Assembly (NCBI GenBank): GCA_018606725.1
Contig: JAGYID010000014.1
Location: 1,895 to 65,894, forward strand
Source of the DNA: Acidobacteriota bacterium
Lineage (GTDB): Bacteria; Acidobacteriota; Polarisedimenticolia; Gp22-AA2
DNA length: 64,000 bases
Direction: 5' to 3'
Shown here: piece after piece, positions 4,053 through 20,079 of the stretch
Layout of the letters: each line of letters opens with the position of its first letter
Numbering within the stretch: position 1 is the first letter of the stretch
Made by a program: the position numbers and the translations under genes
Notes under the pieces: model-generated
What the model was told of the DNA's origin: nothing
Database searches by the model: none
What the model saw: the letters and a program-made list of their open reading frames with translations, nothing else

Positions 4053-4218
4053 CCATGTCCTCGTCGGGTTGCGACTTGGCTCCCGATACTGGCGTGGTAT
4101 TTATAACGCCGTGGTCAGAACCGGGCAATTCGGGAGTTTCATGAATCATCGGTCGGGACGCTCCTGACACCCGTCGGGTTGGATCTTCAAGTTAAGATGT
4201 CCCACTACCGAGGACCGC

Positions 4219-5556
4219 ATGCGTGTGCCACTGCTGGAGTCCATGTCGATCCGGGCGCGAGCCCGCTCCCACGGGGTGCTGACCGAAAATCGACTGCTCT
4301 CCGAGGTGGTCGGGCGCGCGCTGATGCTTCGTTCGCGCTTCGGCCGCCGCTCGGACGCGCACCGGCTGAACGACCTCCTGATCGCCTGCCGGCGCATCGC
4401 TTCCCCGTCCGCGCGGCGGCGGCTCAAACGCGCGGTGGCGCCATGGATCGAGCCGCAGCGCGCCGAGGAGTGGCGGCGAGCGCGCCTCGGGTGGGACCGC
4501 TACTACCGGGAGTTCGATCTGGCGAAGCCCGCGCTCCACACGAGCCTGCTCCTCAAGGCCCCCGGCCCCAACGGCGAGAAGGGCGTGCTCTACATGTCGT
4601 TCGAGTACAACTTCATGCGGCTGCTCGCCCATCACGACGCACGCCGCTTCTTGTCCGAGTACCTCGTCGTGGTCGCGACGTCGTGGTCGCCCACCGATTA
4701 CGGGGTGTTCGCGAGCTACGCCGGTCTGTCGGACGACCCGCTGTTCGCCGGCATCTCGAACCTCGCCGACATCGAGGCCTACCGGGTGATGGGACCAACG
4801 GTGGAGCCGGTCCCGCTGATGGCCAGCGACTGGATCGATCCCCGCTTCTACACGCCCAGGCCGCATGCCGAACGCGAGGTCGACATCCTCATGGTCGCGA
4901 ACTTCACGAGGTTCAAGCGACACTGGCTGCTCTTCCGCGCGCTCAAGCGCATGCGTCCCAATCTGCGGGTCACTCTCATCGGCATCCCGTCGCCGGATCG
5001 CTCGGCCGACCTGCTGCGCGCCGAGGCCAGGGCGTTCGGTGCGCCGCAGGACCTGGAGATCGTTTCCAACGCCAACATCGATGTCGTGACCGCGTACCAG
5101 TGCAACGCGCGCACATCGATCATCCTGAGCAAGCGCGAGGGCTCGTGCGTGGCGACCGCCGAGTGCCTGTTCGCGAACACGCCGATGGGGCTGCTTGGCG
5201 ACGCCCACGTCGGCTCCAAGGCTTACATCAACGAGCGCACCGGTGTCCTTTTCTCCGAGCGCGCGCTGGCCCGCGAGCTCAGCGCGTTTCTCGAAGCGAG
5301 CGGTGACTTCCAGCCGCGCGCCTGGGCGATGGAGCACATCACCTGTCATCGATCGTCGGACCGGTTGAACGCGCAGCTCCGCGAGTATTCGCTCCAGCGC
5401 GGCCGGCCGTGGACCCGCGACATCGCGCCGCTCTGCTGGCGCTACGTGCCGAGCTATGTGTCCGCCGACGACGAGCGGCGCCTCGCTCCGGCGCTCGAAG
5501 ATCTCAAGACGCGCCACGGCGTCGAGCTGAAGAAATGGGTCTACAGGCCGCACTGA
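4219..5556 (+). CDS. Putative GT4-like (GT-B fold) glycosyltransferase.
   Basis: Protein-like composition, unlike the antisense ORF 4192..5586. The C-terminal segment SKREGSCVATAECLFANTPMG resembles the GT4 E-x7-E sugar-donor motif. A GAGGA ribosome-binding site (RBS) lies upstream. Confidence 0.45.
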   Translation: MRVPLLESMSIRARARSHGVLTENRLLSEVVGRALMLRSRFGRRSDAHRLNDLLIACRRIASPSARRRLKRAVAPWIEPQRAEEWRRARLGWDRYYREFDLAKPALHTSLLLKAPGPNGEKGVLYMSFEYNFMRLLAHHDARRFLSEYLVVVATSWSPTDYGVFASYAGLSDDPLFAGISNLADIEAYRVMGPTVEPVPLMASDWIDPRFYTPRPHAEREVDILMVANFTRFKRHWLLFRALKRMRPNLRVTLIGIPSPDRSADLLRAEARAFGAPQDLEIVSNANIDVVTAYQCNARTSIILSKREGSCVATAECLFANTPMGLLGDAHVGSKAYINERTGVLFSERALARELSAFLEASGDFQPRAWAMEHITCHRSSDRLNAQLREYSLQRGRPWTRDIAPLCWRYVPSYVSADDERRLAPALEDLKTRHGVELKKWVYRPH

Positions 5557-5575
5557 CCACCTCGGAGGAATAACC

Positions 5576-7177
5576 GTGCGAACCATTCAGGCCGCGCATT
5601 TCGTCGGAGTCTGGGGAGTCTCGGGCGTCTCGATTGCGCTCTGCTTCGGCGCGCCGGAGGTCGGCCCCTCCGCGCCCGAGCGCCCCAGGATGTTCGTCGA
5701 GACCGCCGCGTCCCCGGTCACGGGGAAAACGATGGTCCTTCGCGCCGGAGGGAATCTGCAGGCGGCGCTCGACGCGGCCCGGCCGGGCGACGCGATCACG
5801 CTGCCGCCGGGAGCATCGTTCCGCGGGCCGTTTACGCTCCCCAGGAAGACGGGCGACGGCTGGATCGTGGTGCGCACCGCCGACGACGTTGGCCTCCCCC
5901 CCGCGGGGACCCGGGTCACCCCCGCCGACGCGGCGCACATGCCGAGGCTCGAGTCGGCTGACGGCCCGGCGATCGAGGCGGCACCTGGAGCGCACCATTT
6001 CCGCTTCGTCGGGATCGAGGTCCGCCCGACCAAGGGGACGTTCCTGTACAACCTGGTGCAGCTGGGAGACCGGGAGTCGCGCGCCGAGGAGACTCCGCAC
6101 CACATCATCTTCGATCGCTGCTACCTGCACGGCGACCCCGACAAGGGGACGCGGCGGGGGATCGCGCTGAACTCGAGGCATACGGCCGTCATCGACTCCG
6201 TGTTGGTCGATTTCAAGGAGAGCGGCGCCGACACCCAGGCCCTCTGCGGCTGGAACGGTCCCGGCCCGTTTGCCATCGTCAACAACCGTCTCGAGGCGGG
6301 GGGGGAGAACGTCATGTTCGGCGGCGCCGATCCGGCCATACCCGGTCTGGTCCCCTCCGATATCGAGATCCGCCGCAATCATTTCACCAAGCCCGTAGCC
6401 TGGAAGGAGGGGACGCCGGAGTACCGGGGGACCTCGTGGACGGTGAAAAACCTCTTCGAGCTGAAGAACGCCCGGCGCGTTCTGGTGGACGGGAACCTGT
6501 TCGAGCACAATTGGGCGCAGGCGCAGACCGGTTTCGCCATCCTGTACACGGTGCGCAATGAAGACGGGAAAGTCCCGTGGGCGGCGGTCGAGGACGTGAC
6601 CTTCACGAATAACATCGTGCGCGGCGTCGGCGCGGGCGTGAACATCCTCGGCCGGGATGCCGGACCCCCGGGCAAGAGCGGACTGACCCGGCGCCTGCGC
6701 ATCGCCAACAACCTGTTCGAGGACGTCGGCAAGGGGTGGGGAGGCTCCGGCATCCTGTTCCAGGTGCTCGAGGGCGCCTCCGACGTAGTCATCGAACATA
6801 ATACCGGTCTACAGTCCGGCAGCATCATCATGGCCGAGGGGACGCCGCACGACCGGTTCGTCTTCCGCGACAACATCGTCCTGCACAACGAGTACGGCAT
6901 CAACGGGTCGGGCACGGCCTCGGGTTCGGGCACGCTGCAGGCCTATTTCCCGAACGCCACCGTGAAGGGGAACGTCATCGTGGGCGGGGCCCCGGACCGC
7001 TACCCGCCGGGCAACTCGTTTCCGGCCAGCCCCGGCGAAGTTGGCTTCAAGGACGCCGCGCACGACGATTATTCCCTCGCCCCCAAGAGCCGCTTTCGCA
7101 ACAAGGCGACCGACGGCAAGGACCCCGGAGTCGATCTGCTGGCGCTTCGGAACGGCATGGCGGAGAAGGAGCCCTGA
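5576..7177 (+). CDS. Right-handed parallel beta-helix (pectate-lyase-fold) repeat protein, probably exported.
   Basis: Repeated N/G-rich beta-helix turns (NNRLEAGGENVMFGG, NIVRGVGAGVNILG, NNLFEDVGKGWGGSGILF) and an N-terminal hydrophobic segment. Confidence 0.55.
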   Translation: MRTIQAAHFVGVWGVSGVSIALCFGAPEVGPSAPERPRMFVETAASPVTGKTMVLRAGGNLQAALDAARPGDAITLPPGASFRGPFTLPRKTGDGWIVVRTADDVGLPPAGTRVTPADAAHMPRLESADGPAIEAAPGAHHFRFVGIEVRPTKGTFLYNLVQLGDRESRAEETPHHIIFDRCYLHGDPDKGTRRGIALNSRHTAVIDSVLVDFKESGADTQALCGWNGPGPFAIVNNRLEAGGENVMFGGADPAIPGLVPSDIEIRRNHFTKPVAWKEGTPEYRGTSWTVKNLFELKNARRVLVDGNLFEHNWAQAQTGFAILYTVRNEDGKVPWAAVEDVTFTNNIVRGVGAGVNILGRDAGPPGKSGLTRRLRIANNLFEDVGKGWGGSGILFQVLEGASDVVIEHNTGLQSGSIIMAEGTPHDRFVFRDNIVLHNEYGINGSGTASGSGTLQAYFPNATVKGNVIVGGAPDRYPPGNSFPASPGEVGFKDAAHDDYSLAPKSRFRNKATDGKDPGVDLLALRNGMAEKEP

Positions 7178-7375
7178 CCACGGCCGCGACGAGTTCCACG
7201 GTATCCCGTCGCAGCGTTCGCCAGGTTCCATCGGGAAAATCCCGACCGGCAGTTCAGGGGGCGCCTCACTGCCCCGCCCCGGATCATCCTCGTATAGTGC
7301 CGGCTCATTGTTGGCTCGATCCGTTCTGAGGATTGGTTCGCCCAGAAGGTCAATGCCCGGCATGAGGAGGGAATC

Positions 7376-7924
7376 ATGAAAGTCATGAATGTGAAGAAGG
7401 TCGTGATGCTCCTGGCAATCCTGACGCTGTTCTCCGCTCCGAGCTGGGCGGGCAGCTTCAGCGCCTTCGGCTCCTACTGGGATACGAACGATGCCGACGG
7501 CAGTTGGGGAGCGGGTGCGCGCGTCGGATTCGACCTGACGAAGAGGATTGAGTTTGAATTCCACGGAACGTACTATCCCGACTTCAAGAACGACGAATTT
7601 CCCGGCCAGACCATCGAGCTCACCGCCATTCCCGTCGACGGCGGCATGAAATTCAATTTCGCGCCCGACAAGACCGTGAATCCCTTCCTGGGCGCAGGGG
7701 TCACCTACTATTTCATGAGCATCAGTCCCGGCAGCGTGGACGACCAGACCGGCGTCTATATCGATGGGGGCCTCGATATCGGAAGCAAGGACGGCACCCG
7801 GTTCTTCGCCGAGGTGATGTGGCGCAAGGTGGATACCTCGATCAGTTTCGGCTCCTTCGACAGTGACGTGAATTTCGATGGGCTCGCTCTGAACATGGGC
7901 GCCACCTGGCGCTGGGGCAAATAG
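7376..7924 (+). CDS. Outer-membrane beta-barrel protein (OmpA-N/OmpW-like porin family).
   Basis: Signal peptide MKVMNVKKVVMLLAILTLFSAPSWA, alternating aromatic/hydrophobic beta-strands, C-terminal ...ATWRWGK with a terminal aromatic residue. Strong GAGGAGGG RBS. Confidence 0.6.
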   Translation: MKVMNVKKVVMLLAILTLFSAPSWAGSFSAFGSYWDTNDADGSWGAGARVGFDLTKRIEFEFHGTYYPDFKNDEFPGQTIELTAIPVDGGMKFNFAPDKTVNPFLGAGVTYYFMSISPGSVDDQTGVYIDGGLDIGSKDGTRFFAEVMWRKVDTSISFGSFDSDVNFDGLALNMGATWRWGK

Positions 7925-8008
7925 GAGCCGGACCTGGACTATACTTTTGCACCCTGATGTCGGTTCCGGGGGCTGAAAGTCGCGGGAACCGCCTGGCGGG
8001 GTGAAGCG

Positions 8009-8305
8009 ATGTCGGAAACCCCGGCAATTCGGTCGAGAATCAAGCAGCTCCTCGTGGATGCGCTCCACCTGGAGGGGCTCGCTCCCTCGAAGATCGCCGA
8101 CGACGCGCCGCTGTTCGGCGAAGGTCTCGGGCTCGATTCCGTGGACGCGCTGGAACTCGTGGTCGCTCTCGAGAAGGAGTTCGGGGTCCGGATCCAGAAC
8201 CACGAGGTCGGCAAAGAGGCGTTCGCCTCGGTCAGCGCCCTGGCGGCCTTCATCGACGGGCGCCTCGCCGCCGCGGGGAGCGCGAATGCCGGCAGCTCAT
8301 CCTGA
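8009..8305 (+). CDS. Acyl carrier protein.
   Basis: LGLDSVDALELV phosphopantetheine-attachment motif (Ser in DSV). Its 3' end overlaps the KS start by 20 nt. Confidence 0.8.
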   Translation: MSETPAIRSRIKQLLVDALHLEGLAPSKIADDAPLFGEGLGLDSVDALELVVALEKEFGVRIQNHEVGKEAFASVSALAAFIDGRLAAAGSANAGSSS

Positions 8306-9554
8306 TCGCGTTGCGTCCCGCGCCGTCGCCGTCACCGGTCTCGGCGCGGTCAGCCCCCTCGGCTGGAGCCTGGAGTCGCTGTGGGACGGCCTGCGGTCCG
8401 GCAGGACCGCCGTCGGTCCGTTCGACCGCTTCGACCACTCCGGCCATCGCACCCACGTCGCAGCCCAGGTCGATCTGGCGGCGGAGCCGGGGCGGCCGCG
8501 CGGCAAACCGCGCCGGATGTCGATCGCCGATCGGTTTGCCGTGGCCGCGGCCCGCGAGGCCGTGGCGCGGTCCGCGATCGATCTCGACGGCTGCGGCGGG
8601 CGCGCCGGCGTCTACTTCGGCAGCAGCACCGGCGGGATGCTCGAGACCGAGACCTACCTCGAGACCCTCCTCGCGGCCGCGGCCGGCCGTGGCAAGTCGC
8701 CCGCGGCGAGCCCCCTCGCCTCGCAGCAGCACAACGGTCCCGGCGATGCGGTGGCCCGCGATCTTCGGATCGGCGGGCCGGTGCAGACCATCTCCGCCGC
8801 GTGCGCGTCGGGCGCCATGGCGATCGGCGACGCCATTCTCGCCATTCGTCGCGGGGAGGTGGAGGTCGCGATCGCCGGAGGCTCCGACTCGCTCTGCCGG
8901 CTGACCTACGCGGGGTTCAACGCGCTGCGCGCGGTGGACGAACGTCCCTGCAGGCCGTTCCGCGGGGACCGCGCCGGCCTGTCGCTCGGCGAGGGCGCGG
9001 CCGCGCTCGTTCTGGAACCCCTCGAGCGGGCCCTGGCGCGCGGCGCGCGGCCGCTCGCCATCGCTGCCGGGGAGGCGGCGACGTGCGATGCGCACCACAT
9101 GACATCGCCCCACCCCGAGGGGCTCGGCGCCGCGGAGGCGATCAAGGGGGCGCTCGCGGACGCGCGGCTCGATCCCTCCGAAATCGACTTCGTCAACGCC
9201 CACGGCACCGGCACGCCGCTGAACGACGCGGCGGAGTGCGAGGCCCTGGTCGCCGTGTTCGGCGACCGGGCGCCGGATCTTCCGGTGACCTCCACCAAGT
9301 CGCTCGTCGGCCACCTGCTGGGTTCGGCCGGGGCGCTGGAGGCCGTGGCGACGATCCTCTGCCTCCTCCATGGGGAGGTCCACCCGATGCCGGACGACGG
9401 GGTGTCCGATCCCGGGATCCGGCTGCGGCTGGTCCTGGGGCGCCCGCTGCGGCTCGCGCGGGCGCGGCACGCGCTCTCCACGAGCCTGGCGTTCGGCGGC
9501 GCCAATGCCGCGCTGGTGTTCACGCGCCACGGAGAACAGCACCCTGCGCGCTGA
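8286..9554 (+). CDS. Beta-ketoacyl-ACP synthase (FabF/KAS II-type, type II PKS KS-alpha-like).
   Basis: VAVTGLGAVSPLG N-terminus, active-site Cys in ISAACASGAMAIG, and His motifs in NAHGTGTPLND and KSLVGHLLGSAG. Confidence 0.85.
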   Translation: MPAAHPDRVASRAVAVTGLGAVSPLGWSLESLWDGLRSGRTAVGPFDRFDHSGHRTHVAAQVDLAAEPGRPRGKPRRMSIADRFAVAAAREAVARSAIDLDGCGGRAGVYFGSSTGGMLETETYLETLLAAAAGRGKSPAASPLASQQHNGPGDAVARDLRIGGPVQTISAACASGAMAIGDAILAIRRGEVEVAIAGGSDSLCRLTYAGFNALRAVDERPCRPFRGDRAGLSLGEGAAALVLEPLERALARGARPLAIAAGEAATCDAHHMTSPHPEGLGAAEAIKGALADARLDPSEIDFVNAHGTGTPLNDAAECEALVAVFGDRAPDLPVTSTKSLVGHLLGSAGALEAVATILCLLHGEVHPMPDDGVSDPGIRLRLVLGRPLRLARARHALSTSLAFGGANAALVFTRHGEQHPAR

Positions 9555-9558
9555 GACG

Positions 9559-10770
9559 GTGATTACGGGACTGGGGACGATCGGCCCCTGCGGACACGGG
9601 CGCGAGGCGCTGGCGGCGGCCCTCGCGGTGGGCAAGCCCGTGGTCACCGAGGTGGACCGCGGCGCCGGGATGCACCGCGGGGGTGGAGCGCGGCTCGCCG
9701 CGCTCGTCCGGGAGCGCGATCTCTCCCGCTGGGTTCCTCCCGCCGCCGCCCGGCGGATGAGCTTTCCGTCGAAGCTCGCCGTGGCTGCGGCGCGCATGGC
9801 CCTCGCCGAGGCCGGCATCGGCGCCACCGGCGCCGGCGACCCGCGCGTCGGCGTCTACCTCGCCACCACGTTCGGCTCGGGACTCTCCACGGAGCGGCTG
9901 CTGCGCCAGATCCTGCTCGAAGGGGCCGAAGCGGCGCAGCCTTTCCACTTTTCGGAGTGCGTCGCCAACGCCCCCGCCGCGCAGCTCGCCATCGCCGTCG
10001 GCGCGCACGGCCCCAACGTGACGCTGACCCAGCGCGAAGCGGGGCCGCTCCTCGCCGTCGCCCGCGGGGCCCAGGCGGTGCGCGAAGGGCGCGTCGACCT
10101 CGCGCTCGCCGGCGCCGTCGAGGAGGTCACCCCGCTGCTGCACGCGCTGCTCGACCGCTTCGGCGCGCTGGCCCGGAAGGAGGGCGCGCTCGCGGAATTG
10201 CCGCGACCGTTCGACCGGCGGCGCGACGGCTTCCTCGCGGGAGAGGGAGCGACCCTCATCGTCCTCGAGCGTGAGGACGCGGCGCGTTCGCGCGGCGCGC
10301 GGGCGCTGGCGCGGGTGGCGTGGAGCGGTGCCGCGTTCGACGCGACCGCGACCGTTTCCGACTGGGGCGATGGCCACGCGCCTCTCGCCGCGGCCCTGCG
10401 CGCGGGGCTCGACGAAGCGCCTGGTGGAGCGGCCGGCGTCGGCGCCGTCGTCTCCGGGGCTTCGGGGGCCCGGCGGGGCGACCGCCTCGAGGCGCGCGTC
10501 GTGCGCGCCGCCTGGGGCGAGATCCCGCTGCCTCCCGTCCTGGTGCCCAAAGCGGTCACCGGCGAGTACGGGGGCGGGATCATCGCCCCGGGGTTGCTCG
10601 CTCTCGAGGGAGCGCGTTTCGGTCCCACGCCGGGATTCGCGGAACCCGACCCCGAGGTCGGTATCACGCCCCACTGCGGCGGAGCGCACCCGATCCCGTC
10701 CCGCGTTCTGCTGACCGGGCTGGCGTCCGGCGGGGGGGCCGCGTGGCTCGTCCTGGAACGGGCATCGTGA
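9559..10770 (+). CDS. KS-like partner subunit (chain-length-factor/KS-beta-like beta-ketoacyl synthase family protein).
   Basis: GTG start 4 nt after the KS stop, indicating translational coupling. Thiolase-fold KS homology (VITGLGTIGPCG..., C-terminal VLLTGLASGGGAAWLVLE). Arrangement is typical of APE/type II PKS KS-CLF pairs. Confidence 0.7.
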   Translation: MITGLGTIGPCGHGREALAAALAVGKPVVTEVDRGAGMHRGGGARLAALVRERDLSRWVPPAAARRMSFPSKLAVAAARMALAEAGIGATGAGDPRVGVYLATTFGSGLSTERLLRQILLEGAEAAQPFHFSECVANAPAAQLAIAVGAHGPNVTLTQREAGPLLAVARGAQAVREGRVDLALAGAVEEVTPLLHALLDRFGALARKEGALAELPRPFDRRRDGFLAGEGATLIVLEREDAARSRGARALARVAWSGAAFDATATVSDWGDGHAPLAAALRAGLDEAPGGAAGVGAVVSGASGARRGDRLEARVVRAAWGEIPLPPVLVPKAVTGEYGGGIIAPGLLALEGARFGPTPGFAEPDPEVGITPHCGGAHPIPSRVLLTGLASGGGAAWLVLERAS

Positions 10771-11501
10771 GCGACACCCGGCGGGTGGCGCTGGTCACGG
10801 GCGGGAGCCGCGGCATCGGGCGCGCCATCGTGCGCGCGCTGGCCGGGGAGGGTTGGAGGGTCGCCTTCACCTGGCGCGAGCGCGAGGACGAGGCGCAACG
10901 CCTGGCCGGGGAGCTCGGCGACGCGGCGCGTCCCTTCCGGCTCGATCTCCTGGATCGAGCGCGCCCGGGGAGCCTCGTCGTCGAGGTCGAGGACCAGCTC
11001 GGGCCGATTGCCGGACTGGTGAACAACGCCGGGGTGCGGCGCGACGGGCTGCTCGCGGCGCTCCCCGACGACGCCTGGGACGCGATGCTCGACGCCAATC
11101 TCGGCGGCGCCTTCCGCTGCTGCCGCGCCGCGATCCCGCGCATGTTGCGCCGGCGGGCGGGCTCGATCGTCAACGTGTCCTCGCTGACCGCCGTGCACGG
11201 ACTCGCCGGCCAGACGGCCTATGGCGCGGCCAAGGCGGGCATCCTCGGCCTGACTCGTTCCCTGGCGCGGGAGATCGGCTCGCGCGGGATCCGGGTCAAC
11301 GCCGTGATCCCGGGCTTCGTGCCGACCGACATGGTCGCCGACCTGCCGCCCGAAAAGGTCACGGCGCTGCGCGCCGCCGAGGCGCTGCCGGGCGGCGTGA
11401 CCGCGGCCTCCGTCGCCGACGCGGTGGCGTTCCTGCTGTCGGACCGCGCGGCCTCCATCACCGGCCAGACCCTCGTCGTCGACGCCGGCATGACGGCGTA
11501 G
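10767..11501 (+). CDS. fabG: 3-oxoacyl-ACP reductase (FabG-type SDR ketoreductase).
   Basis: GTGA start overlaps the upstream stop. Rossmann motif VALVTGGSRGIGRAI, NNAG motif, catalytic Ser...YxxxK (TAYGAAKAG). Confidence 0.85.
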   Translation: MSDTRRVALVTGGSRGIGRAIVRALAGEGWRVAFTWREREDEAQRLAGELGDAARPFRLDLLDRARPGSLVVEVEDQLGPIAGLVNNAGVRRDGLLAALPDDAWDAMLDANLGGAFRCCRAAIPRMLRRRAGSIVNVSSLTAVHGLAGQTAYGAAKAGILGLTRSLAREIGSRGIRVNAVIPGFVPTDMVADLPPEKVTALRAAEALPGGVTAASVADAVAFLLSDRAASITGQTLVVDAGMTA

Positions 11502-11512
11502 GAGCGTGGCCG

Positions 11513-12691
11513 ATGTCGCCTGATGCCAGCAGCGCTGCACGCGACGGCCGCCTCGCCGCGCTGCTCCCCGCGGAGCTGATCCCGCTCTTCGACGAGCGGT
11601 TCGTCGGGTCGTGCACCCTGTTCGAGGAATACGTGCACCGGCTCGCGTTGCGGGTCGTCCGCAGCACCGGGATCGACGCCGCGGCGAGGCAGCCTGGCAC
11701 TCGCGGCGAGATCGCGGTGCGTGCCGGCCTGGACGCGGCCCGCGCAGAGGTCACGGTGGGCTGGCTCCTGGCCACGCTGGCGCTGACCGGTCGCGCGGCA
11801 CGCGCCGGCGACGGGCGCTTCCACATCCCGTCGGCGCTGCCGGATCTCGAACCCGAGGAGGTGGCCCGCGAGCAGGAACGCCACGATCCCTCCGCCCTGG
11901 CGTCCTACAGGATGGCGGACCTCGCGGCTGCGGCGTATCCGTCCGTCCTCCGCGGGACCGCGAGCGGCGAGGCGGCCCTGTTCGCGCCGGAACGGATCGG
12001 CGCGTGGTTCGAGTACTTCTCCAACGACAACGTCATCTATGCGATCAGCAACCGCATCGGAGCGATCGCGGCCGAGCGCGCGCTGCACGGCGACGGGGGG
12101 GCGGTCCTCGAGCTCGGGGGCGGACTGGGGAGCGGGACGGCGGCGGTGCTGGAGCGTCTCGCGGACGCGGGGCGGCTCCCCGCAGTCCGGTCTTACCGTC
12201 TCACGGAGATCGCGCCGTCATTCCTGCGCCGGGCCCAGCGGAGGCTCGCGGGGCGGTTCCCCGGCGTGCCGCTTTCCTTCGGACGTCTCGACATGGACCG
12301 GCCGTTCGGCGAGGCGGAGGTCGAGGCAGGTACGTTCGCGCTCGTGTACGGCGTCAACACCCTGCACGTCGCCCGCGACCTCGAGTTCACCCTCGCCGAG
12401 GTCCGGCGCGCCCTCGCACCGGGGGGGGCCCTCGTCCTGTCCGAGTGCGTCCGGCCGTTCCCCGACCGGCCGGTCTACATCGAGTTCCTGTTCAACCTGC
12501 TCGAGGCGTTCCGCGCCCCGCGGCTCGTCGAGCCGTGGCGCCCCAACGGCGGCTTCCTCACTCCCGAACAGTGGACCGCGGCCCTCGAAGCCTGCGGCTT
12601 CCGCGCGGTGACCGTCTATCCCGACATCGCGCGGATCCGCGAGGTCTGCCCCGCGTTCGTCGTGGCCGCGATCACGGCCACAGCCGCCTGA
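11513..12691 (+). CDS. Class I SAM-dependent methyltransferase.
   Basis: GGAG RBS 8 nt upstream. SAM-binding motif I VLELGGGLGSGT and post-I acidic residue. The 3' end overlaps the convergent acyltransferase gene. Confidence 0.7.
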   Translation: MSPDASSAARDGRLAALLPAELIPLFDERFVGSCTLFEEYVHRLALRVVRSTGIDAAARQPGTRGEIAVRAGLDAARAEVTVGWLLATLALTGRAARAGDGRFHIPSALPDLEPEEVAREQERHDPSALASYRMADLAAAAYPSVLRGTASGEAALFAPERIGAWFEYFSNDNVIYAISNRIGAIAAERALHGDGGAVLELGGGLGSGTAAVLERLADAGRLPAVRSYRLTEIAPSFLRRAQRRLAGRFPGVPLSFGRLDMDRPFGEAEVEAGTFALVYGVNTLHVARDLEFTLAEVRRALAPGGALVLSECVRPFPDRPVYIEFLFNLLEAFRAPRLVEPWRPNGGFLTPEQWTAALEACGFRAVTVYPDIARIREVCPAFVVAAITATAA

Positions 12692-13643
12692 AGCAGAACC
12701 ACTGGTGCGGCGCGCGGCGGATGGCCCACTCGATCTCGGCCGCCACCCGCCGCATGGTGGCCGTCAGATCCGCCGCCCGATCGTCGGTTCGCGGGGCGCG
12801 GATCGGCGGGCGGAAGACCACCCGGTAGCGCCGTCGTCCCTCGCGGAAGACGAAGACGGGCAGGAGCGGCGCATCGGCGGTCCGGGCGAGGGCGGCCGGG
12901 CCCGGCGGAAGCGGGAACGGCCTCCCGAACAGCGACGCGTCGATCGATTTCCCGCCCGCCCGCGGACGGTCCCCCTGCACGGCGACGATGTCTCCGCGGC
13001 GAAGCGCGTCGAGCAGCTCCATGCCCTGCAGCGGGTCGTCGTTCTGAAAGTGCATCGTGTACCGGGCCTGCGTGAACCCGGCCACCACGCTCCGGAGAAA
13101 CGCCTGCGCCTGCGCGTCGGCCTCGGGCTCGCGGACAAGATGAACGCGGCGAAGCTCCATCTGTGCCGGCACCATGGAGCCGACCTCGAAGTTCCCCAGG
13201 TGCGCCGTGACCAGCATGAAACCCCGGTCCAGCCGCGCCACCTCGTTCCAGTGCTCGATCGCCTCGGGGTCTATCTGGAACGACCGGTCCGTGATCAACC
13301 GTTCGTAGCGCTCGTTCAGGCACCATCCGAACGACCACATCGTCCTGCAGATGCGGCGCTGGCGCTCCCACCAGCCGCAGGGCCCGAGGACCGCCTCGAG
13401 GTTCGACGCGATGGCGGCGCGGATCTTTCGCAGGCAGACGAAGAAGAATGCCGTGAAGACGGCGGAGAGAATCCACAGGAACGGCGACGGAACCGCGCGA
13501 AGGATGAAGCGATGCAGGCGGTACCAGAAGACGCCGGTGATGTGGAACGGGCCGAGGATCCTCCAAGACCAGCCGCGTTCCGGTGCGTGGGGCGGTGTCG
13601 CCTCGGCAGGCGCAGCCACGGGGGCAGTTCGGGACTCGGCCAC
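12672..13643 (-). CDS. LpxL/HtrB-like lysophospholipid (lauroyl/myristoyl) acyltransferase.
   Basis: N-terminal membrane anchor, an LPLAT-type HxxxxD-like block (VTAHLGNFE), and family-typical length (323 aa). Such acyltransferases are standard in aryl polyene clusters. Confidence 0.7.
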   Translation of the reverse strand: MAESRTAPVAAPAEATPPHAPERGWSWRILGPFHITGVFWYRLHRFILRAVPSPFLWILSAVFTAFFFVCLRKIRAAIASNLEAVLGPCGWWERQRRICRTMWSFGWCLNERYERLITDRSFQIDPEAIEHWNEVARLDRGFMLVTAHLGNFEVGSMVPAQMELRRVHLVREPEADAQAQAFLRSVVAGFTQARYTMHFQNDDPLQGMELLDALRRGDIVAVQGDRPRAGGKSIDASLFGRPFPLPPGPAALARTADAPLLPVFVFREGRRRYRVVFRPPIRAPRTDDRAADLTATMRRVAAEIEWAIRRAPHQWFCFRRLWP

Positions 13644-13652
13644 GGGCGGATT

Positions 13653-14678
13653 CTACAGCGACACGCCTTCGAGCTCGACCAGCAGATCCGCCCGGCAGAG
13701 GTCGGCCTTCAGGTAGATGGCCGAGGTCGACGGATCGAGCCGCCGTGCGAGAGCGTCCCGGATCGCGGGGAAGTGCTCCGGAGAGCGGACGTAGGTCTTG
13801 AGCAGGCCGAAGCGGACGACGTCGTGGCGCCGCCGCCCGGAGCGCCCGACCGCCCCCTCGAGCAGGGCATCGACGTTGGTCAGCGACTCCTCGAGCTGGC
13901 CGAGCGGGTCGCCGCGGTGCACCGTCTCGTGACCGACGACGCTCCCCGTGCCGGACAGGAAGAGCGCCCGCCCCCAGCTCGCCGGCGCGAAGGTGCCGCG
14001 GGCGAAGGAGGGGCTCTTCGGACCGTACTCCGGCGGGTAGCGGTGCGCGCTGACCTGCCGCGGGTTCTCGACGTGGGTCCCCGGCTCGCGGCCGGCGGCG
14101 AAACAGACGATGAGCGCCTCGCCGACGGTGCCGACCGCCGAGGCCGCGGAGAAGTGCTGCTCGGCAGTCTCGCCGAAGCGCTCCTCGAAGCCGCGGGCGC
14201 GTCCGACGTTGAAGCGCTTGTAGCGCTCGACGCCGCGCTGGGTCTCGTTGATCTGCGGTACGTAGTTCCAGACGCGCTGCAGGCCGGGGTAGCCGCGCTC
14301 GTCGAGGAGGGCGAGCAGCTCGCGGTAGGTCTCGAACGCGTCCGCCTCGATGTCGTCGCCGACGCGACGGCTGCGACAGCCAAACAGCACGCGGCCGTCC
14401 TCGGCCCACGCCAGTTCGCCCCGGCGGAAACGCGCGGCGGGCGCCGGAGTGCCCCAGATCTCGAGCTGGGGCGCGCCGTCCAGGACGGAGTTCGGGACAT
14501 CGACGAAAGGATGATCGGCGTCGCGCAGCCCCGACGCCGGCCCGCCGTAGCGCACCGCCAACAGGACGCGGCCGCGCTCTTTGTCGAGTTCGGCCGCCAA
14601 CCGCCCGGCCGGACCGACCCGCAGAGTCAGCCCGGTCTCCCGTGCGCCGGGCGAAGTCTGGAGCGCAGGTGTCATCAT
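13653..14678 (-). CDS. FkbO/Hyg5/XanB2-family chorismatase-like protein with a C-terminal YjgF/RidA-like domain; a predicted hydroxybenzoate-forming enzyme.
   Basis: 341 aa, close to FkbO/XanB2 length. The C-terminal half (FSAASAVGT...LFLSGTGSV...) resembles the YjgF-like domain of chorismatases. Its position between the acyltransferase and the PHP gene inside a KS/CLF/ACP cluster parallels the xanthomonadin locus. Confidence 0.5.
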   Translation of the reverse strand: MMTPALQTSPGARETGLTLRVGPAGRLAAELDKERGRVLLAVRYGGPASGLRDADHPFVDVPNSVLDGAPQLEIWGTPAPAARFRRGELAWAEDGRVLFGCRSRRVGDDIEADAFETYRELLALLDERGYPGLQRVWNYVPQINETQRGVERYKRFNVGRARGFEERFGETAEQHFSAASAVGTVGEALIVCFAAGREPGTHVENPRQVSAHRYPPEYGPKSPSFARGTFAPASWGRALFLSGTGSVVGHETVHRGDPLGQLEESLTNVDALLEGAVGRSGRRRHDVVRFGLLKTYVRSPEHFPAIRDALARRLDPSTSAIYLKADLCRADLLVELEGVSL

Positions 14679-14687
14679 TATTGATTC

Positions 14688-15665
14688 CTAGCCTTCGGGC
14701 TCTTCCTGCGGGGCGGAAGGGGCGCAGGGTTCCGCGACGGTCCGGAGATCGGCGCTCCTCATGCTCCGCGAAACCACCTTGCTCAGCCCGCTCGTCCCGA
14801 AGTAGCTCAGAAGGCTCATGAAGAGCGGGACCCCCGCCAGGGAGATCGGCACGAAGGCTGCCGCCGCCAGATAGTTGACCGGCGTCATGCGGCGGCGTTC
14901 CGCGGGAATGCCGAGATGCCGGTAGTACCGGCCGACCATCCCGTACACCTGCCCCACCAGCCCGAGAAGGCCGATCTCGCGCCCCGCCACGAGACAGTTC
15001 CCCTCCGCCACGGAAGCGAGCCAGGCCCGCTTGTCATCGCCGGGCGCGAGCGTGACGTAGGCCCCGATCGGCCGCAGACCGTGCGCGTCGCTGCCGCCGA
15101 TTCCGAAACGGGTCAGCCCCATCCGCCGGCCATACTCAAGGATGCCGGCGGCAGCCCGGTTCTGATCGGGGGGCAGCGTGCCGTTCCCCATCTCCACGTG
15201 GGTGAACAGCTCCAGGATATCCTCCACGAACCGCATCGGACTCTTCTGCATGCGATAGCTCTGGAAAGGATGATTGAGGACGTGGACCAGATTCCGGGAG
15301 CGCAGGTACGGGACGAGCTCGTAGATGTTCCCCTTCACCCGATTCAGATCGTCGTGGGTCGCCTCGTCGACCCCGAGGACGTTCACGTGGGCCCACTGCC
15401 CGGTTTCCGGGAAGAAGGTCTCGACCTCCTCGCCGATGATCACGGTCGGCTCGAGATCGGGGCGCCTCGACAGGAGCTCGAGGGCTCCGTCGATGGTGTC
15501 GTGGTCGGTGATGGCGACATAGTCGCAGCCGACCTCCCGGCAGCGCTCGTAGACGCGCAGGGGGTCGTTGTAGGAGTCGCGCGCGCGAAGGAGCTTCAGA
15601 TGCCGGAAATTCGAGAAGGCGGTGTGGACGTGCAGGTCAACCTTCCGCAGAGGAGATCCGGTCAC
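14688..15665 (-). CDS. PHP-domain metal-dependent phosphoesterase.
   Basis: N-terminal DLHVHTAFS and ITDHD PHP motifs, with later GGSDAHG. Confidence 0.6.
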   Translation of the reverse strand: MTGSPLRKVDLHVHTAFSNFRHLKLLRARDSYNDPLRVYERCREVGCDYVAITDHDTIDGALELLSRRPDLEPTVIIGEEVETFFPETGQWAHVNVLGVDEATHDDLNRVKGNIYELVPYLRSRNLVHVLNHPFQSYRMQKSPMRFVEDILELFTHVEMGNGTLPPDQNRAAAGILEYGRRMGLTRFGIGGSDAHGLRPIGAYVTLAPGDDKRAWLASVAEGNCLVAGREIGLLGLVGQVYGMVGRYYRHLGIPAERRRMTPVNYLAAAAFVPISLAGVPLFMSLLSYFGTSGLSKVVSRSMRSADLRTVAEPCAPSAPQEEPEG

Positions 15666-15736
15666 GCGGCGTTCCCTCCAGCGCCGCGGCGGGTCGCGGC
15701 AAACGGCGGCATTCTATCATCCGGCGGGCGGTTACA

Positions 15737-16480
15737 ATGATTGCGACGATGAAGACTGCCGACAGCCCGGGCGCGGCCGCGCTGAACCGGCGCTTCTACG
15801 ATGCGCTCTGGGCCGACACTTACCTGATTCGGCCCGAGCGCTTCAACACCTGGCCGCTGGTCCGCGATCTGATGATCGCCGGTTCGCACCGCCTGGAGAT
15901 CGGGCCGGGCCTGCGGCCGCGCCTGCCGATCCCCGGCACCTGCTTCGTCGACATCAGCCGCGCCGCCCTCTCCCGGCTGGTCCGGCATGGCGGGTTGGCC
16001 ACGCAAGCCACCGCCGAGGCCTTGCCGTTTCCGGATGCGGCCTTCGATCTCGTCATGGCGATGGACATCATCGAGCACGCCGTCGACGACGAGCCGGTGT
16101 TCCGCGAGCTGGCGCGAGTGCTCCGGCCCGGCGGGGCGCTGGTGCTGTCTTCGCCGCTGCACCCGGACAAATGGACCAGCTTCGACGACGTGGTCGGGCA
16201 TCTTCGCCGCTACCAGCCTCGAGAGCTGCTGGCGAGGCTGGCAGGCCACGGGCTGACGCTGGAACGCAGCGCCGTCTACGGCATGCAGCTGCGCAGCCGG
16301 ATGCTGATCCGAATGGGAGCGTGGTGGCTCACGCGACGGAGAGAGCAGGCGATGCGCTGGTACAACCGCGTGCTCATGCCGATCGGACTGTTGTTCGAGA
16401 AACGCCTGCGGCTGGAGCCGGGAATGATCGACGCCACGCGCGTGGACGAGGTGCTGCTGGTCTGCCGGAAGAACTTTTAA
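15737..16480 (+). CDS. Class I SAM-dependent methyltransferase (Methyltransf_11-like).
   Basis: Motif I region LEIGPGLRP and Methyltransf_11-like core DLVMAMDIIEHAVDDEPVFRELARVLRPGGALVLS. Confidence 0.7.
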   Translation: MIATMKTADSPGAAALNRRFYDALWADTYLIRPERFNTWPLVRDLMIAGSHRLEIGPGLRPRLPIPGTCFVDISRAALSRLVRHGGLATQATAEALPFPDAAFDLVMAMDIIEHAVDDEPVFRELARVLRPGGALVLSSPLHPDKWTSFDDVVGHLRRYQPRELLARLAGHGLTLERSAVYGMQLRSRMLIRMGAWWLTRRREQAMRWYNRVLMPIGLLFEKRLRLEPGMIDATRVDEVLLVCRKNF

Positions 16481-17253
16481 CCACCCGCCTCCGACGACCG
16501 TTCCTCGAGCCTCGATCGCTCCGTCGGGTCCGCGAGGTCGAACAGGCCGTCGGGGATTTGCCGCTCCTCCATCTCGAGGAGCGTGACCTCGGTCCGGAGT
16601 CCGGAGCGGAGACGGTCGGTGATGACCAGCCGGCGGGCCACGGGCCGGGCCCCTTCCCTCCACTCGAGGAATTCCACGACGGACGAGGTCTTCCCGCTCG
16701 GCAGGAGGTATTCGGCGCGGACGGGCCTTTCCGTCGCGCGTCGCACGAAGTACCTGATCTTGGGATAGGGGGCGCGCTTGCTCCTGGCCGCCAGATCCAG
16801 GACGACGAGAGGCTCCCCGGCCTCCTCCGTCTCCGTGGCTCGCTCGATCCCATAGTCGCGCCCGTAGCGGATCCCGAGGACGTCATCGATCGACGCGCTC
16901 CCGCGCAGCCGTCGCGCCGGGCTCATCTTGATGGGCTTCCGGGCGCCGGGTGCCAGGAACCAGACGACGTCATCGAGCCTGAGAAGGTATTTCCCCGTCT
17001 CGTTCGGCCCCAGGAAGCGCACCAGGCTCTTCGCGTCGCCCGAGCGCCAGACCTCGATGTCCATCGGGCCGGGCCGCTGGTGAAGCGCATCGATCCGGAG
17101 GCGCGCCCGGAAGGACTCCGGGGCGAGGCTCGCGACGTCGCTCTTCCTGAGGATATCCGCGGCGGCTTCGGGCGTAATCACCGCGGCCGGCGCGGGCGCG
17201 GGCATCAGAGCGAGGACCGCGACGATGGCCGCGGACAGCCTCCCGCTAAACAT
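16477..17253 (-). CDS. LolA-like outer-membrane lipoprotein-sorting/carrier protein.
   Basis: Signal peptide MFSGRLSAAIVAVLALMPAPAPAAV. Beta-rich, about 250 aa. Start overlaps the stop of the upstream ABC permease, so it is the operon's last gene. LolA-like proteins are typical of APE export modules. Confidence 0.55.
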   Translation of the reverse strand: MFSGRLSAAIVAVLALMPAPAPAAVITPEAAADILRKSDVASLAPESFRARLRIDALHQRPGPMDIEVWRSGDAKSLVRFLGPNETGKYLLRLDDVVWFLAPGARKPIKMSPARRLRGSASIDDVLGIRYGRDYGIERATETEEAGEPLVVLDLAARSKRAPYPKIRYFVRRATERPVRAEYLLPSGKTSSVVEFLEWREGARPVARRLVITDRLRSGLRTEVTLLEMEERQIPDGLFDLADPTERSRLEERSSEAGG

Positions 17254-18487
17254 GCCGGAGCGCGTCCGCGATCCGGAGCCGGACGGACATCCCCACCGGC
17301 ACGGCGGCCGCAATGCCGAGAATCACCAGCATGAGCGCGACGGTGGCGGCGAAGTCGCCCGGCGCCGTCGCGAGCCGGAGCTCGATGCCACCCGTCGCTC
17401 CGGGCGGGGGTGGCATCTGGATCCCGAGACCGTTGATCGCGGCGACGAGGGCGATCCCGAGGAGGTCTCCGGCCAGCGCCCCAAGGAGCCCGAGCCACAG
17501 GGCCTCGAGCAGGATGATCGCCGCCACCTGTGCGCGGCTCGTCCCGATGGCGAGGAGCGTGCCGATTTCGCGGACGCGCTCCATGACGGACATCATGAGA
17601 GTGTTCGAGGTCGACAGACAGACGAGGACGAAGATGACCGATCCGAGAAACCAGAAGATACCGAGGTAGAGGGACTCCACCTGTCCGTAGAACGGCGCGC
17701 GCGTCTTCCAGTCCACGATCGCGAGGGACGGCTCCCGCCCGCGGAGGCGGCGGTCGAGCTCGGCCTGGACCTCCGGAGTCCGCGCTGTGTCGTCGAGCCC
17801 GATGACGAGCGACGTGATGTTCTGCGTGCCGAGGAGCCGTTGCGCGCTCGCGAGGTGCATCTTGACGATACGGGAATCGAGGTCCTGGAGCCCGGTCGTG
17901 ATCAGGCCGGCCACCCGGAGATCGAGCGCGTTCAACGTCCCGTCGGTCGTGATGCCGAGCAGCGTGAGCAGGTCCCCCGCCTCCGCGCCGAGGCTTCGCG
18001 CCAGGACCGTCCCGAGGAGGATCGCGTCCTCCCCGTCCGACGGTGGCGCGTCGGGCAGGCCCGTCCCCCCTCGGAGCTTCACCTCGAACCGCATGCGACG
18101 CTCGCGCCCGGGCTCGTTGGCCACGGCGATCACCGCGGCGGACCGCTCCCCCTTCGAGAGCATGCCGGTGAACTGCACGATGGCGCCGGCGGCCAGGACG
18201 TGCGGCATCGCCTCGATCCCGTTCCGCAGCTCCTGCCAATCCTGCATGCCGGGGATCCCCGGACGCTCGGCGGAGGACTCGCCCCCGGCGACGTCGCTTC
18301 GAGGCACGACCTCGAGCTGACCGATTCCGCCGTGGATGATCGCCTCGCGCAGCCCCTCGAAGGAAAACCGGATGAAGCCGGCGGTGAGGAGTGTGCCGAT
18401 CGTCCCCGCGGCGACGATCAGGAGCGAGAGCAGCGTCCGCCGGCGGTTCCGCGCCAGGTTCCGCAGGGCGATCACGGCGAACTTCAT
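17246..18487 (-). CDS. ABC transporter permease, FtsX/MacB/LolCE-like.
   Basis: N-terminal [33 protein letters not shown], a large periplasmic domain, then the C-terminal FtsX 4-TM bundle. ATGA overlap with the upstream ATPase. Confidence 0.75.
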   Translation of the reverse strand: MKFAVIALRNLARNRRRTLLSLLIVAAGTIGTLLTAGFIRFSFEGLREAIIHGGIGQLEVVPRSDVAGGESSAERPGIPGMQDWQELRNGIEAMPHVLAAGAIVQFTGMLSKGERSAAVIAVANEPGRERRMRFEVKLRGGTGLPDAPPSDGEDAILLGTVLARSLGAEAGDLLTLLGITTDGTLNALDLRVAGLITTGLQDLDSRIVKMHLASAQRLLGTQNITSLVIGLDDTARTPEVQAELDRRLRGREPSLAIVDWKTRAPFYGQVESLYLGIFWFLGSVIFVLVCLSTSNTLMMSVMERVREIGTLLAIGTSRAQVAAIILLEALWLGLLGALAGDLLGIALVAAINGLGIQMPPPPGATGGIELRLATAPGDFAATVALMLVILGIAAAVPVGMSVRLRIADALRHV

Positions 18488-19242
18488 CGAACCCCTCCCG
18501 GGCGGCGGGCGCCGGCGCCCTCGTCGGCGATGACGCGCCCGTCGAGGAGACGGATCCGCCGCGGCGATCTCTCGATGACGGCCGGGTCGTGGGTGGCGAT
18601 GAGGAACGTGGTGCCCCGCTCGGTGTTCGTCCGCGCCAGCAGGTCTACGATCTCCGCTCCGGTTGTCGAGTCGAGGTTCGCGGTGGGCTCGTCGGCGAGG
18701 ATGACGCGCGGGTCGTGAACGAGGCCGCGTGCGAGCGCGACGCGCTGCCGCTCCCCGCCCGAGAGCTGGTCGGGCCGCTGGTGCATGCGGCCGGCGAGAC
18801 CGACGGAGGCGAGCGCCTCCTCCGTCCGCCGCCGCCGCTCGGCCCGGCCGAGGCCGTCGATCCTCAACGGGTACTCGACGTTCTCGTAGGCGGTGAGCAC
18901 CGGGATGAGATTGAACGACTGGAACACGAACCCGACCTTGCGCCGGAGGAACAACGTCCTCTCGCCGGACGTCTGCCGGCCGAGGTCGCTCCCCTCGAAG
19001 AGCACGCTCCCGGAGTCCGGCCCGTCGAGGGCGCCGAGCAGGTTGAAGAGCGTCGTCTTGCCGCACCCCGAGGGCCCGGCGACCACCACGAACTCGCCCC
19101 TCGTGACGACCAGGTCGACGCCGCGGAGAGCCTCGATGGTGAAGGCGCCCAGCCGGTATCTCTTGCGAAGCCCGGACGCCTCGAAGATCGGCGGAGCCGA
19201 CTCGGGATCGAGGGGCCGGCGCGGTGCGTGGGGTTCGGACAT
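18484..19242 (-). CDS. ABC transporter ATP-binding protein (LolD/MacB-type).
   Basis: Walker [13 protein letters not shown] signature [14 protein letters not shown], Walker B ILADEPT, H-loop IATHD. Confidence 0.85.
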
Positions 19243-19338
19243 GAACCTGGATTCTATCGAATCCCGGGCGGATTCGAACTTCGGCGGCCGGTTGATCGGG
19301 GCCCTGATAGAATTCCCTGGCCGCAAGGAGAATGCTTG

Positions 19339-20079
19339 ATGGGGTCCTTCAGGACGGAGGTGCGCCGCCGGGGACACCGGGGGTCTGCCGAACGCCGTGG
19401 CGCACCCGATCCCCTCGAGCGGGCGCTCGTGGCCGCGACGGCGCGCTACGTCGGACTGCACCCGCGGTTCCGCTGGTACGCGCGCCTGAAATACCGGTTT
19501 GATCCCTGCTACCGGGCGATTGCGCGGCACATCGGCGAGGACTCGTTCACCGTGGATCTGGGAACCGGCCTCGGGATGCTGCCGGTGCTGCTCGGCGAGC
19601 TCGGCGGGCGACGTCGGGCCCTCGGCGTCGATTGGGATCGGGAGAAGGTGCGCTGCGGGCTCCATGCGTCCCGCGGCCTCCCGGGCGTGGAGATGGTCGA
19701 AGGCGACCTGCATGCCTTCGCCCTGCCCGCCTGCGACGTCATCACCCTGGTTGACGTGCTCCATTACTACGAGGCCCCCAGGCAGGAGGAGATTCTCCAA
19801 CGATGCCGGCTGGCGCTCGGGCCGGGCGGCCGCCTGATCATCCGGGACGGCGACGGCGCCCGCCCGGGCGGCGCGCGCTTCACGCGGATCGTCGAGACGT
19901 GGGCCACCCGAATGGGGTGGAATCGGGGACCGGCGGTGCATTTCCGGCCCATATCGGAGCTGCGCGCCGCGCTCGTCGGGCTCGGCTTTCGCGTCGACGA
20001 GGACGAGGTGGCGAGTCGGTCTCATCCCGGCAACGTGCTTCTCGTGGCCGGGCTGGACACGGTGTCAGGAGATCCCTGA
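19339..20079 (+). CDS. SAM-dependent methyltransferase (small class I methyltransferase).
   Basis: Divergent from the ABC operon across a 96-bp intergenic region. Motif I VDLGTGLGMLP, later LIIRDG. The N-terminal part of the listed ORF is artefactual; start chosen at MGSFRTEV. Confidence 0.6.
   Translation: MGSFRTEVRRRGHRGSAERRGAPDPLERALVAATARYVGLHPRFRWYARLKYRFDPCYRAIARHIGEDSFTVDLGTGLGMLPVLLGELGGRRRALGVDWDREKVRCGLHASRGLPGVEMVEGDLHAFALPACDVITLVDVLHYYEAPRQEEILQRCRLALGPGGRLIIRDGDGARPGGARFTRIVETWATRMGWNRGPAVHFRPISELRAALVGLGFRVDEDEVASRSHPGNVLLVAGLDTVSGDP

Follow-up and report, generated by a model that had tools for sequence, protein, structure and literature searches.

A putative XanB2-like chorismatase gene in an aryl-polyene-type cluster of an Acidobacteriota bacterium, a probable source of a hydroxybenzoate starter unit

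Where does an aryl-polyene-type gene cluster of the Acidobacteriota, a dominant and poorly cultured soil phylum, obtain the aryl acid with which its polyketide chain would be primed? This question is raised by a stretch of 64,000 nucleotides from an Acidobacteriota bacterium (assembly GCA_018606725.1, contig JAGYID010000014.1, positions 1,895 to 65,894; the whole stretch is referred to here as the window), in which an earlier note, made from the sequence alone, had singled out the gene at 13653-14678 as an FkbO/XanB2-type chorismatase and a candidate source of a hydroxybenzoate starter. Our analysis places the encoded protein in this family, and we regard it as probable that it is a non-hydrolytic chorismatase supplying a hydroxybenzoate starter to the aryl polyene of the surrounding cluster.

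The gene is a 341-codon open reading frame (ORF) on the minus strand, with an ATG start at 14678 that is preceded by an AGGA-type ribosome-binding site and a TAG stop at 13655-13653. The window has a G+C content of 68.8% and long spurious ORFs are plentiful in it; the minus-strand frame at 13653-14678 is nevertheless the true coding frame, as seen from its codon-position GC (GC1 0.74, GC2 0.52, GC3 0.90) and from a frame plot with an unbroken third-position GC peak along the ORF. The ORFs that overlap the gene show a composition implausible for coding, and an identical 341-residue protein (P0001), encoded on a contig of 71,453 bp, is on record in NCBI. Gaps of 9 bp separate the gene from a PHP-domain gene on its 5' side and an acyltransferase gene on its 3' side; all three lie on the minus strand, in the arrangement that the earlier note had given. 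A promoter and terminator scan of 12400-16700 returned no promoter and one terminator-like site, which is the level expected by chance.

The protein had been described as a chorismatase of the FkbO/Hyg5/XanB2 type with a RidA-like architecture, and both parts of this description were borne out. Its sole Pfam match is PF21168, the chorismatase N-terminal FkbO/Hyg5-like domain (E 3.8e-32, 111.3 bits against a cut-off of 27), spanning residues 73-194 and profile positions 1-121 of 122, and its sole NCBIfam match is TIGR04444 (chori_FkbO_Hyg5; E 2.3e-67, profile positions 21-310 of 311): the profiles assign a chorismatase including its N-domain, rather than a RidA-only or pteridine-dependent protein. 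In a PDB sequence search the only significant matches were Hyg5 (5AG3/5A3K, E 1.6e-50) and FkbO (4BPS, E 6.9e-44), both over residues 53-339; the name under which 5AG3/5A3K were deposited, 'putative pteridine-dependent dioxygenase', is a legacy name of Hyg5 itself. An AlphaFold model built from a 42-sequence alignment (mean predicted local distance difference test score, pLDDT, 92.3; predicted template modelling score, pTM, 0.91) was compared by Foldseek with these structures and gave TM-scores of 0.84-0.89 (Hyg5 0.84-0.86; FkbO 4BPS 0.89), with RidA/YjgF proteins, each at about one third coverage, in the next ranks, followed by Toblerone-fold cyclic amide hydrolases. On sequence and model, the gene encodes a full-length member of the FkbO/Hyg5/XanB2 chorismatase family with its pseudo-threefold RidA-like fold.

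In order to assess whether the active site is intact, the protein (the query) was aligned with Hyg5 and FkbO, two of the three enzymes that the earlier note had proposed for this purpose: the query keeps each of the 29 residues that are invariant in the 42-sequence alignment and common to Hyg5 and FkbO, including the catalytic glutamate (query E335, Hyg5 E334, FkbO E338) and a conserved core of R135, Y153, R160, N205, Y214, R227, R298 and R329. In Hyg5, E334 protonates the enolpyruvyl methylene and opens an arene-oxide route to 3-hydroxybenzoate (3-HBA) (PMC7170507). Product selectivity across the four subfamilies, CH-I/FkbO, CH-II/Hyg5, CH-III/XanB2 and CH-IV, is governed by three positions (PMC7170507 and its supplement), and the Hyg5 signature, as given in that paper and the legend of its supplement, is Gly/Gly/Cys (Nat-hyg5 G164/G231/C318, corresponding to Hyg5 G173/G240/C327). 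The residues at positions 1, 2 and 3 are as follows:

Query: A181, G243, C328
Hyg5: G173, G240, C327
FkbO: G181, A244, A331

The query carries Gly and Cys where the CH-I/FkbO signature has Ala at positions 2 and 3, and it matches the CH-II/Hyg5 signature at these two positions with Ala181 in place of Gly at position 1; R207/Q208 are likewise Hyg5-like, FkbO having A208/V209. A 2015 abstract by Hubrich et al. reportedly names two residues that split FkbO from Hyg5 and one additional residue that marks XanB2, a description with which position 1 agrees. The Ala/Gly/Cys combination is found in 135 of the 154 aligned homologues, among them every sequence from Variovorax, Hydrogenophaga, Verrucomicrobiota, Nitrospirota and Acidobacteriota, and both Gly/Gly/Cys and Gly/Ala/Ala are essentially restricted to actinomycetes, which suggests that Ala/Gly/Cys is the prevailing environmental chorismatase type; solved structures exist only for the rarer actinobacterial types. 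Identity of the query is 35% to Hyg5, 35% to FkbO and about 40% to betaproteobacterial enzymes, and a neighbour-joining tree places it in a large acidobacterial clade apart from the actinobacterial Hyg5/FkbO, proteobacterial and verrucomicrobial clades. The IMG product name of close homologues is 'chorismate lyase/3-hydroxybenzoate synthase', the label of bifunctional XanB2. For Variovorax paradoxus a xanthomonadin-like cluster is documented, and among betaproteobacterial enzymes ArcB has been confirmed by biochemistry to be of the XanB2 type (PMC3949708). Because the Ala/Gly/Cys signature is common to the Variovorax, Hydrogenophaga and Verrucomicrobiota enzymes, our best call for the query is a putative XanB2-like synthase of 3-HBA and possibly also of 4-hydroxybenzoate (4-HBA).

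A strict Hyg5-type synthase, which would make 3-HBA only, with no enzymatic 4-HBA, and still feed the polyene, is the closest competitor to this call: G243, C328 and R207/Q208 are identical to Hyg5, and 4-HBA also arises non-enzymatically from chorismate (PMC3949708), which makes the distinction between XanB2 and Hyg5 a subtle one. We nevertheless consider it unlikely, though with an appreciable residual chance, since position 1 is Ala and not the Gly of CH-Hyg5 and since the tree puts the protein outside the actinobacterial Hyg5/FkbO clade.

The setting of the chorismatase gene is a block of sixteen cluster genes that tile 4168-20079 free of gaps, all intact and with strong codon bias; the other genes of the window are unrelated to it. 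With gene boundaries corrected by frame plot, the cluster reads:

4168-5556, plus strand: GT1-family glycosyltransferase, a probable cluster member (PF00534, E 2.3e-05, 24.4 bits, under the cut-off of 26.4)
5531-7177, plus strand: 548-residue protein (no Pfam family, a 20-bit NosD/beta-helix match, no PDB match)
7298-7924, plus strand: small outer-membrane beta-barrel protein (PF13505, E 4.5e-06, 27.4 bits, under the cut-off of 28.7)
8006-8305, plus strand: acyl carrier protein (ACP) with an LGLDSV phosphopantetheine site (PF00550, E 9.3e-12 on the ORF 7958-8305)
8298-9554, start approximate, plus strand: FabF-like ketosynthase (KS) with intact Cys/His/His (AACASG, HGTGT and GH motifs)
9550-10770, start approximate, plus strand: chain-length-factor (CLF)-like KS partner (ketoacyl-synt N-domain only, without the active-site Cys motif)
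10767-11501, plus strand: FabG-like 3-oxoacyl-ACP reductase (KR) with TGGSRGIG (frame plot, translation)
11513-12691, plus strand: stand-alone C-methyltransferase (C-MT) of the polyketide synthase (PKS) type, 392 residues (PF08242)
12672-13643, minus strand: LpxL/HtrB-type lipid acyltransferase (PF03279, E 2.6e-25; NCBIfam LpxL-like matches under cut-off)
13653-14678, minus strand: predicted chorismatase of the FkbO/Hyg5/XanB2 family, 341 residues (PF21168, TIGR04444, PDB matches, fold)
14688-15665, minus strand: PHP-domain metallohydrolase, CehA/McbA-like (PF02811, E 1.1e-05, 26.3 bits against a cut-off of 26.4)
15737-16480, plus strand: class I S-adenosylmethionine (SAM) methyltransferase, UbiE/Methyltransf_11-like (an 83%-identical copy in the cluster of the related locus L081)
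16477-17313, minus strand: LolA-like/TP_0789-like lipid or lipoprotein carrier (PF17131, E 2.3e-22)
17246-18520, upper boundary approximate, minus strand: MacB/FtsX-type ABC permease (PF02687, PF12704, frame plot)
18484-19230, start approximate, minus strand: ABC transporter ATPase (PF00005, E 9.7e-33, frame plot)
19339-20079, plus strand: SAM methyltransferase-like gene, the third of the cluster and at its edge (an 83% homologue adjoins the ABC genes of L081)

The set of KS, CLF-like partner, ACP and KR is present, as are an acyltransferase, a glycosyltransferase (PF00534 under its cut-off), a LolA-like carrier and an exporter, the last being of the MacB/FtsX and ABC kind and not MMPL. Judged by this gene content, the chorismatase gene lies in a type II PKS cluster of the aryl-polyene/xanthomonadin type.

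In order to see how far this arrangement is conserved, the gene context was compared over 81 related loci (L001-L081), with homologues at 53-82% identity as the main guide to context. The closest genome matches to the chorismatase are Acidobacteriota metagenome-assembled genomes (MAGs) at 79% and 69% identity, all others reaching at most 49% (36-45% over the full length). The pair of chorismatase and acyltransferase is kept in all close acidobacterial relatives, and linkage to KS, CLF, KR and C-MT is kept in five acidobacterial loci. In L001 and L077 (79-82% identical) the order is ABC-FtsX-LolA-PHP-chorismatase-acyltransferase-(dehydratase)-C-MT-KR, which the longer L077 continues with CLF-KS-ACP; only these two loci and the window have the PHP gene beside the chorismatase (tblastn). 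L080 (66%) reads methyltransferase-chorismatase-acyltransferase-dehydratase-C-MT-KR-CLF-KS-ACP-deacetylase without a PHP gene, and L081 (71%) has a dehydratase-less layout like that of the window and shares with it the 548-residue protein, both extra methyltransferases and a CBS gene. In L079 (53%) a methyltransferase lies directly upstream of the chorismatase, and the downstream part of the locus holds KR, GT2, CLF and KS together with a deacetylase and an AMP-binding ligase. The 69%-identical chorismatase of the Acidobacteriota MAG locus L006 (10001-10891) is split over three reading frames, probably through assembly frameshifts and not as a pseudogene, and this locus carries an AMP-ligase beside KS/CLF. 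Over the whole set, 29 of the 81 loci have an AMP-ligase at most 10 kb from the chorismatase; in 12 the distance is no more than about 200 bp, and these 12 come almost exclusively from Verrucomicrobiota. A polysaccharide-deacetylase homologue (PF01522, ArcN-like) is near the chorismatase in 28 of 81, from several phyla. The repeated occurrence of this chorismatase type, across phyla, together with a ligase for aryl acids and type II KS/CLF genes is the genomic signature of a benzoate-primed polyene.

A different setting was seen in L078 (Thermoanaerobaculia), where a 46%-identical chorismatase at 10001-11017 on a 4.5-Mb contig, with the Ala/Gly/Cys signature, has no PKS genes within 10 kb. Genes for COX1, SCO1, cytochrome b/Fe-S and NMO are among its neighbours, a hint that some members of the family act in primary metabolism, perhaps in quinone formation.

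Several results weigh against a XanB2-like chorismatase that primes the polyene of this cluster. The TIGR04444 score of 227.5 bits lies under the curated cut-off of 325, and since the match is nonetheless the sole one and full-length, we take the protein to be a divergent, non-actinobacterial family member. To read Ala181 as 'XanB2-type' is an inference from an alignment that held no Xanthomonas XanB2 or CH-IV sequence; a homologue search seeded with a gammaproteobacterial sequence and aimed at Xanthomonas XanB2 returned only metagenomic and Steroidobacteraceae relatives. By tblastn and a six-frame motif scan, no AMP-binding homologue or adenylation core motif was found in the window, and the 10 kb on either side of the chorismatase contain no AMP-ligase in L077, L080 and L081 either. 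Because the ligase is absent from all of these, the loading step must rest on an enzyme encoded outside the window, the alternative being that priming works differently in the acidobacterial clade; in Azoarcus the equivalent genes lie in two unlinked loci, with ligase and ACP in the second (PMC3949708). Neither an ApeI/ApeP-like dehydratase nor a polysaccharide-deacetylase homologue was found in the window by tblastn, so that polyene formation would need help from elsewhere. The benzoate-primed polyene suggested by the earlier note is supported by the chorismatase and the type II PKS context, with the caveat that the loading AMP-ligase and the dehydratase are missing from the window.

Two products of the cluster were considered as a stand-in for the ligase and rejected: the 548-residue ORF at 5531-7177, which matches no Pfam family, has the NosD-like similarity of 20 bits as its only match and finds nothing in the PDB, and the PHP protein, since PHP/CehA-McbA proteins are hydrolases and since L080 and L081 lack it. 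The 548-residue protein has a 60% homologue in the L081 cluster (L081 18189-19775) and, on this conservation, may be a cluster component. The PHP protein gave no PDB sequence match; it matches NF038032 under cut-off (5.1e-17) and has a hydrophobic C-terminal segment, and an esterase or release step in the pathway is possible for it.

A further reading takes the missing ligase together with the C-MT: priming would proceed without a cluster-encoded adenylating enzyme, either through a recruited housekeeping ligase or through an unrecognised loading via the chorismatase-acyltransferase operon, with or without the PHP hydrolase, and the C-MT would set methyl branches on the chain. An outer-membrane lipid of a new class would result, a methyl-branched aryl (poly)ene or aryl-hydroxyacyl lipid. 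The C-MT resembles domains of modular and iterative PKSs (CurJ, 5thy, 9.4e-16; DisA, 6cca, 4.1e-15; LovB; the CMeT domain of PksCT), is conserved in L001, L077, L080 and L081, and, on its similarity to these domains, predicts alpha-methyl branches on the chain; it differs from the small-molecule O-methyltransferases expected in xanthomonadin and aryl-polyene (APE) clusters. We hold this combined reading, of priming without a cluster-encoded adenylating enzyme and of methyl branching, to be distinctly improbable. The single 612-residue protein that could be read from the ORF 10853-12691 was rejected, as the frame plot resolves it into the KR at 10767-11501 and the C-MT at 11513-12691.

It is also conceivable that the hydroxybenzoate serves another use, as quinone precursor, as a diffusible-factor-like signal or as a late acyl decoration, and that the co-location with the PKS genes is a loose one. 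XanB2 also provides 4-HBA for coenzyme Q and 3-HBA as diffusible factor (PMC3949708), the homologue of L078 stands alone by respiratory genes with no PKS nearby, and a loading ligase is lacking in the window. Against this stand the 9-bp-spaced PHP-chorismatase-acyltransferase operon, the linkage to KS, CLF, KR and C-MT in five acidobacterial loci and the recurrent adjacency of chorismatase and AMP-ligase in other phyla, and we give a use other than priming little credence.

The cluster could equally be seen as a reduced remnant without dehydratase, deacetylase and ligase, in which the polyene has been lost and the chorismatase kept without that function. In three relatives the acyltransferase and C-MT genes are separated by a gene whose product has dehydratase domains of ApeI-like and ApeP-like kind (L077 11985-12848 and L080 11969-12766, by Pfam; L001 12005-12826, by tblastn at 70% identity); this gene is cleanly absent in two of the five close loci, the window and L081, where acyltransferase and C-MT converge with an overlap of about 20 bp (12672-12691 in the window); the deacetylase homologue seen in 28 of the 81 loci is absent from the window as well. 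However, all sixteen genes are intact with strong codon bias, the occurrence of the same dehydratase-less layout in L081 points to a functional, stable variant served by some other dehydratase rather than to a decaying cluster, the Azoarcus genes are split over two unlinked loci, and our analysis covered 64 kb of the 71,453-bp source contig. Decay is an explanation to which we assign a low probability.

An FkbO-type hydrolytic chorismatase, giving 3,4-dihydroxycyclohexa-1,5-dienoate as a non-aromatic starter, is extremely unlikely: its similarity equals that of Hyg5 in identity and its TM-score to 4BPS is high, but both positions that separate FkbO from Hyg5 are Hyg5-like (G243 against A244, C328 against A331), as are R207/Q208 against A208/V209, genes for a type I PKS or for cyclohexane processing are lacking in the surroundings, and the combination A181/G243/C328 excludes, on sequence, the hydrolytic class.

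For the preferred reading, a non-hydrolytic chorismatase that feeds the polyene, a route can be proposed with the mechanism taken from the Hyg5 and XanB2 literature (PMC7170507, PMC4685789) and the later steps from gene context. Glu335 would protonate the enolpyruvyl methylene of chorismate; intramolecular attack by the C4 hydroxyl would then give an arene oxide with loss of pyruvate, and ring opening would yield 3-HBA, with Ala181 in place of the Hyg5 Gly probably allowing some 4-HBA too, as in XanB2 and ArcB. An aryl-acid AMP-ligase from outside the window would activate the hydroxybenzoate for loading on the cluster ACP, the KS/CLF pair and the KR would extend the chain, and a dehydratase encoded elsewhere would act on it, while the PKS-type C-MT, the other methyltransferases or both would add methyl groups to C and/or O. 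The co-transcribed LpxL-like acyltransferase could then, with the glycosyltransferase, join the aryl polyene to a lipid anchor, and the LolA-like protein and MacB-type ABC exporter could carry it to the outer membrane.

Gram-negative APE clusters (E. coli/Xenorhabdus) and flexirubin clusters likewise combine a type II KS/CLF with ACP and KR, and the likeness extends to an ApeI/ApeP-like dehydratase in the sister loci and to an acyltransferase, a glycosyltransferase and a LolA-like carrier for outer-membrane localisation. Canonical APE clusters draw 4-HBA from primary metabolism and encode the adenylating enzyme ApeH and an MMPL exporter; here, in contrast, the aryl acid would come from an in-cluster chorismatase, no adenylating enzyme was seen, and the C-MT stands alone. 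Flexirubin clusters use a tyrosine ammonia-lyase. The earlier note had set the locus apart from an ammonia-lyase route used by many APE clusters: six-frame translation of the window contains no ammonia-lyase motif of the 4-methylideneimidazole-5-one (MIO) type. The 'many' is an overstatement.

The xanthomonadin and arcuflavin systems are also close, with XanB2 (XCC4014 of Xanthomonas campestris) and ArcB (Azoarcus sp. BH72), both CH-III, belonging to the same family at about 340 residues. The gene inventory of the window matches these clusters, which comprise KS, KS-like protein, reductase, glycosyltransferase, acyltransferase, outer-membrane protein, XanB2, methyltransferase, LolA and exporter (PMC3949708, Table 1), and in which an AMP-ligase activates the 3-HBA made by XanB2 or ArcB (PMC3949708). 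Unlike them, the window has no adjacent AMP-ligase equivalent to Xcc4015/ArcT, no halogenase and no dehydratase, and its exporter is a MacB-type ABC system and not MMPL-like; the PHP hydrolase and the PKS-type C-MT are additions relative to them. Hyg5 of Streptomyces hygroscopicus (5AG3/5A3K), a CH-II 3-hydroxybenzoate synthase, is the best match of solved structure, sharing with the query the catalytic Glu, Gly243, Cys328 and R207/Q208 (query numbering) and differing at Ala181 (Hyg5 Gly173). Hyg5-type enzymes serve actinobacterial type I PKS and nonribosomal peptide synthetase pathways (PMC7170507), as opposed to the type II aryl-polyene cluster here. FkbO/RapK (4BPS), the hydrolytic CH-I enzymes, have the same fold and invariant core, and given the changes from FkbO A244, A331 and A208/V209 to G243, C328 and R207/Q208 we do not expect the query to form the dihydrodiol by hydrolysis.

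Much is already well established about this enzyme family, including its mechanism and the part it plays in aryl-polyene pigments; close homologues are automatically annotated with the XanB2 name, and genome-mining surveys routinely list aryl-polyene clusters for Acidobacteria. Our results do not overturn this understanding. Of modest interest are the acidobacterial clade, the layout without ligase and dehydratase, the PHP hydrolase partner and the stand-alone PKS-type C-MT. If the assignment is correct, experimentally characterised XanB2/Hyg5-type chemistry reaches the Acidobacteriota, and the outer membrane of these bacteria would be predicted to contain aryl-polyene lipids that are primed with hydroxybenzoate and probably methylated. 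Pigments of this kind guard Xanthomonas and Lysobacter against photo-oxidative stress. The cluster variants with and without dehydratase, PHP hydrolase and AMP-ligase form a natural series for finding the genes that the pathway needs.

Some smaller observations concern the remaining genes. The KR homologues of L077, L080 and L081 have adh_short/KR Pfam matches, the gene immediately 5' of the chorismatase in both L079 and L080 encodes a UbiE-like methyltransferase similar to that of the window, and homologues of the MacB/FtsX permease are 413 residues long in L077 and L081. The exporter module at 16477-19230, made up of the LolA-like protein, the MacB/FtsX permease and the ATPase, resembles LolCDE and stands where APE and xanthomonadin clusters usually have an MMPL/RND-type exporter. 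Radical-SAM genes at 24786-26306 (plus strand), 49055-50206 (minus strand) and 59265-61280 (minus strand), two of them B12-binding and one of DUF3641 type, are unrelated to the cluster.

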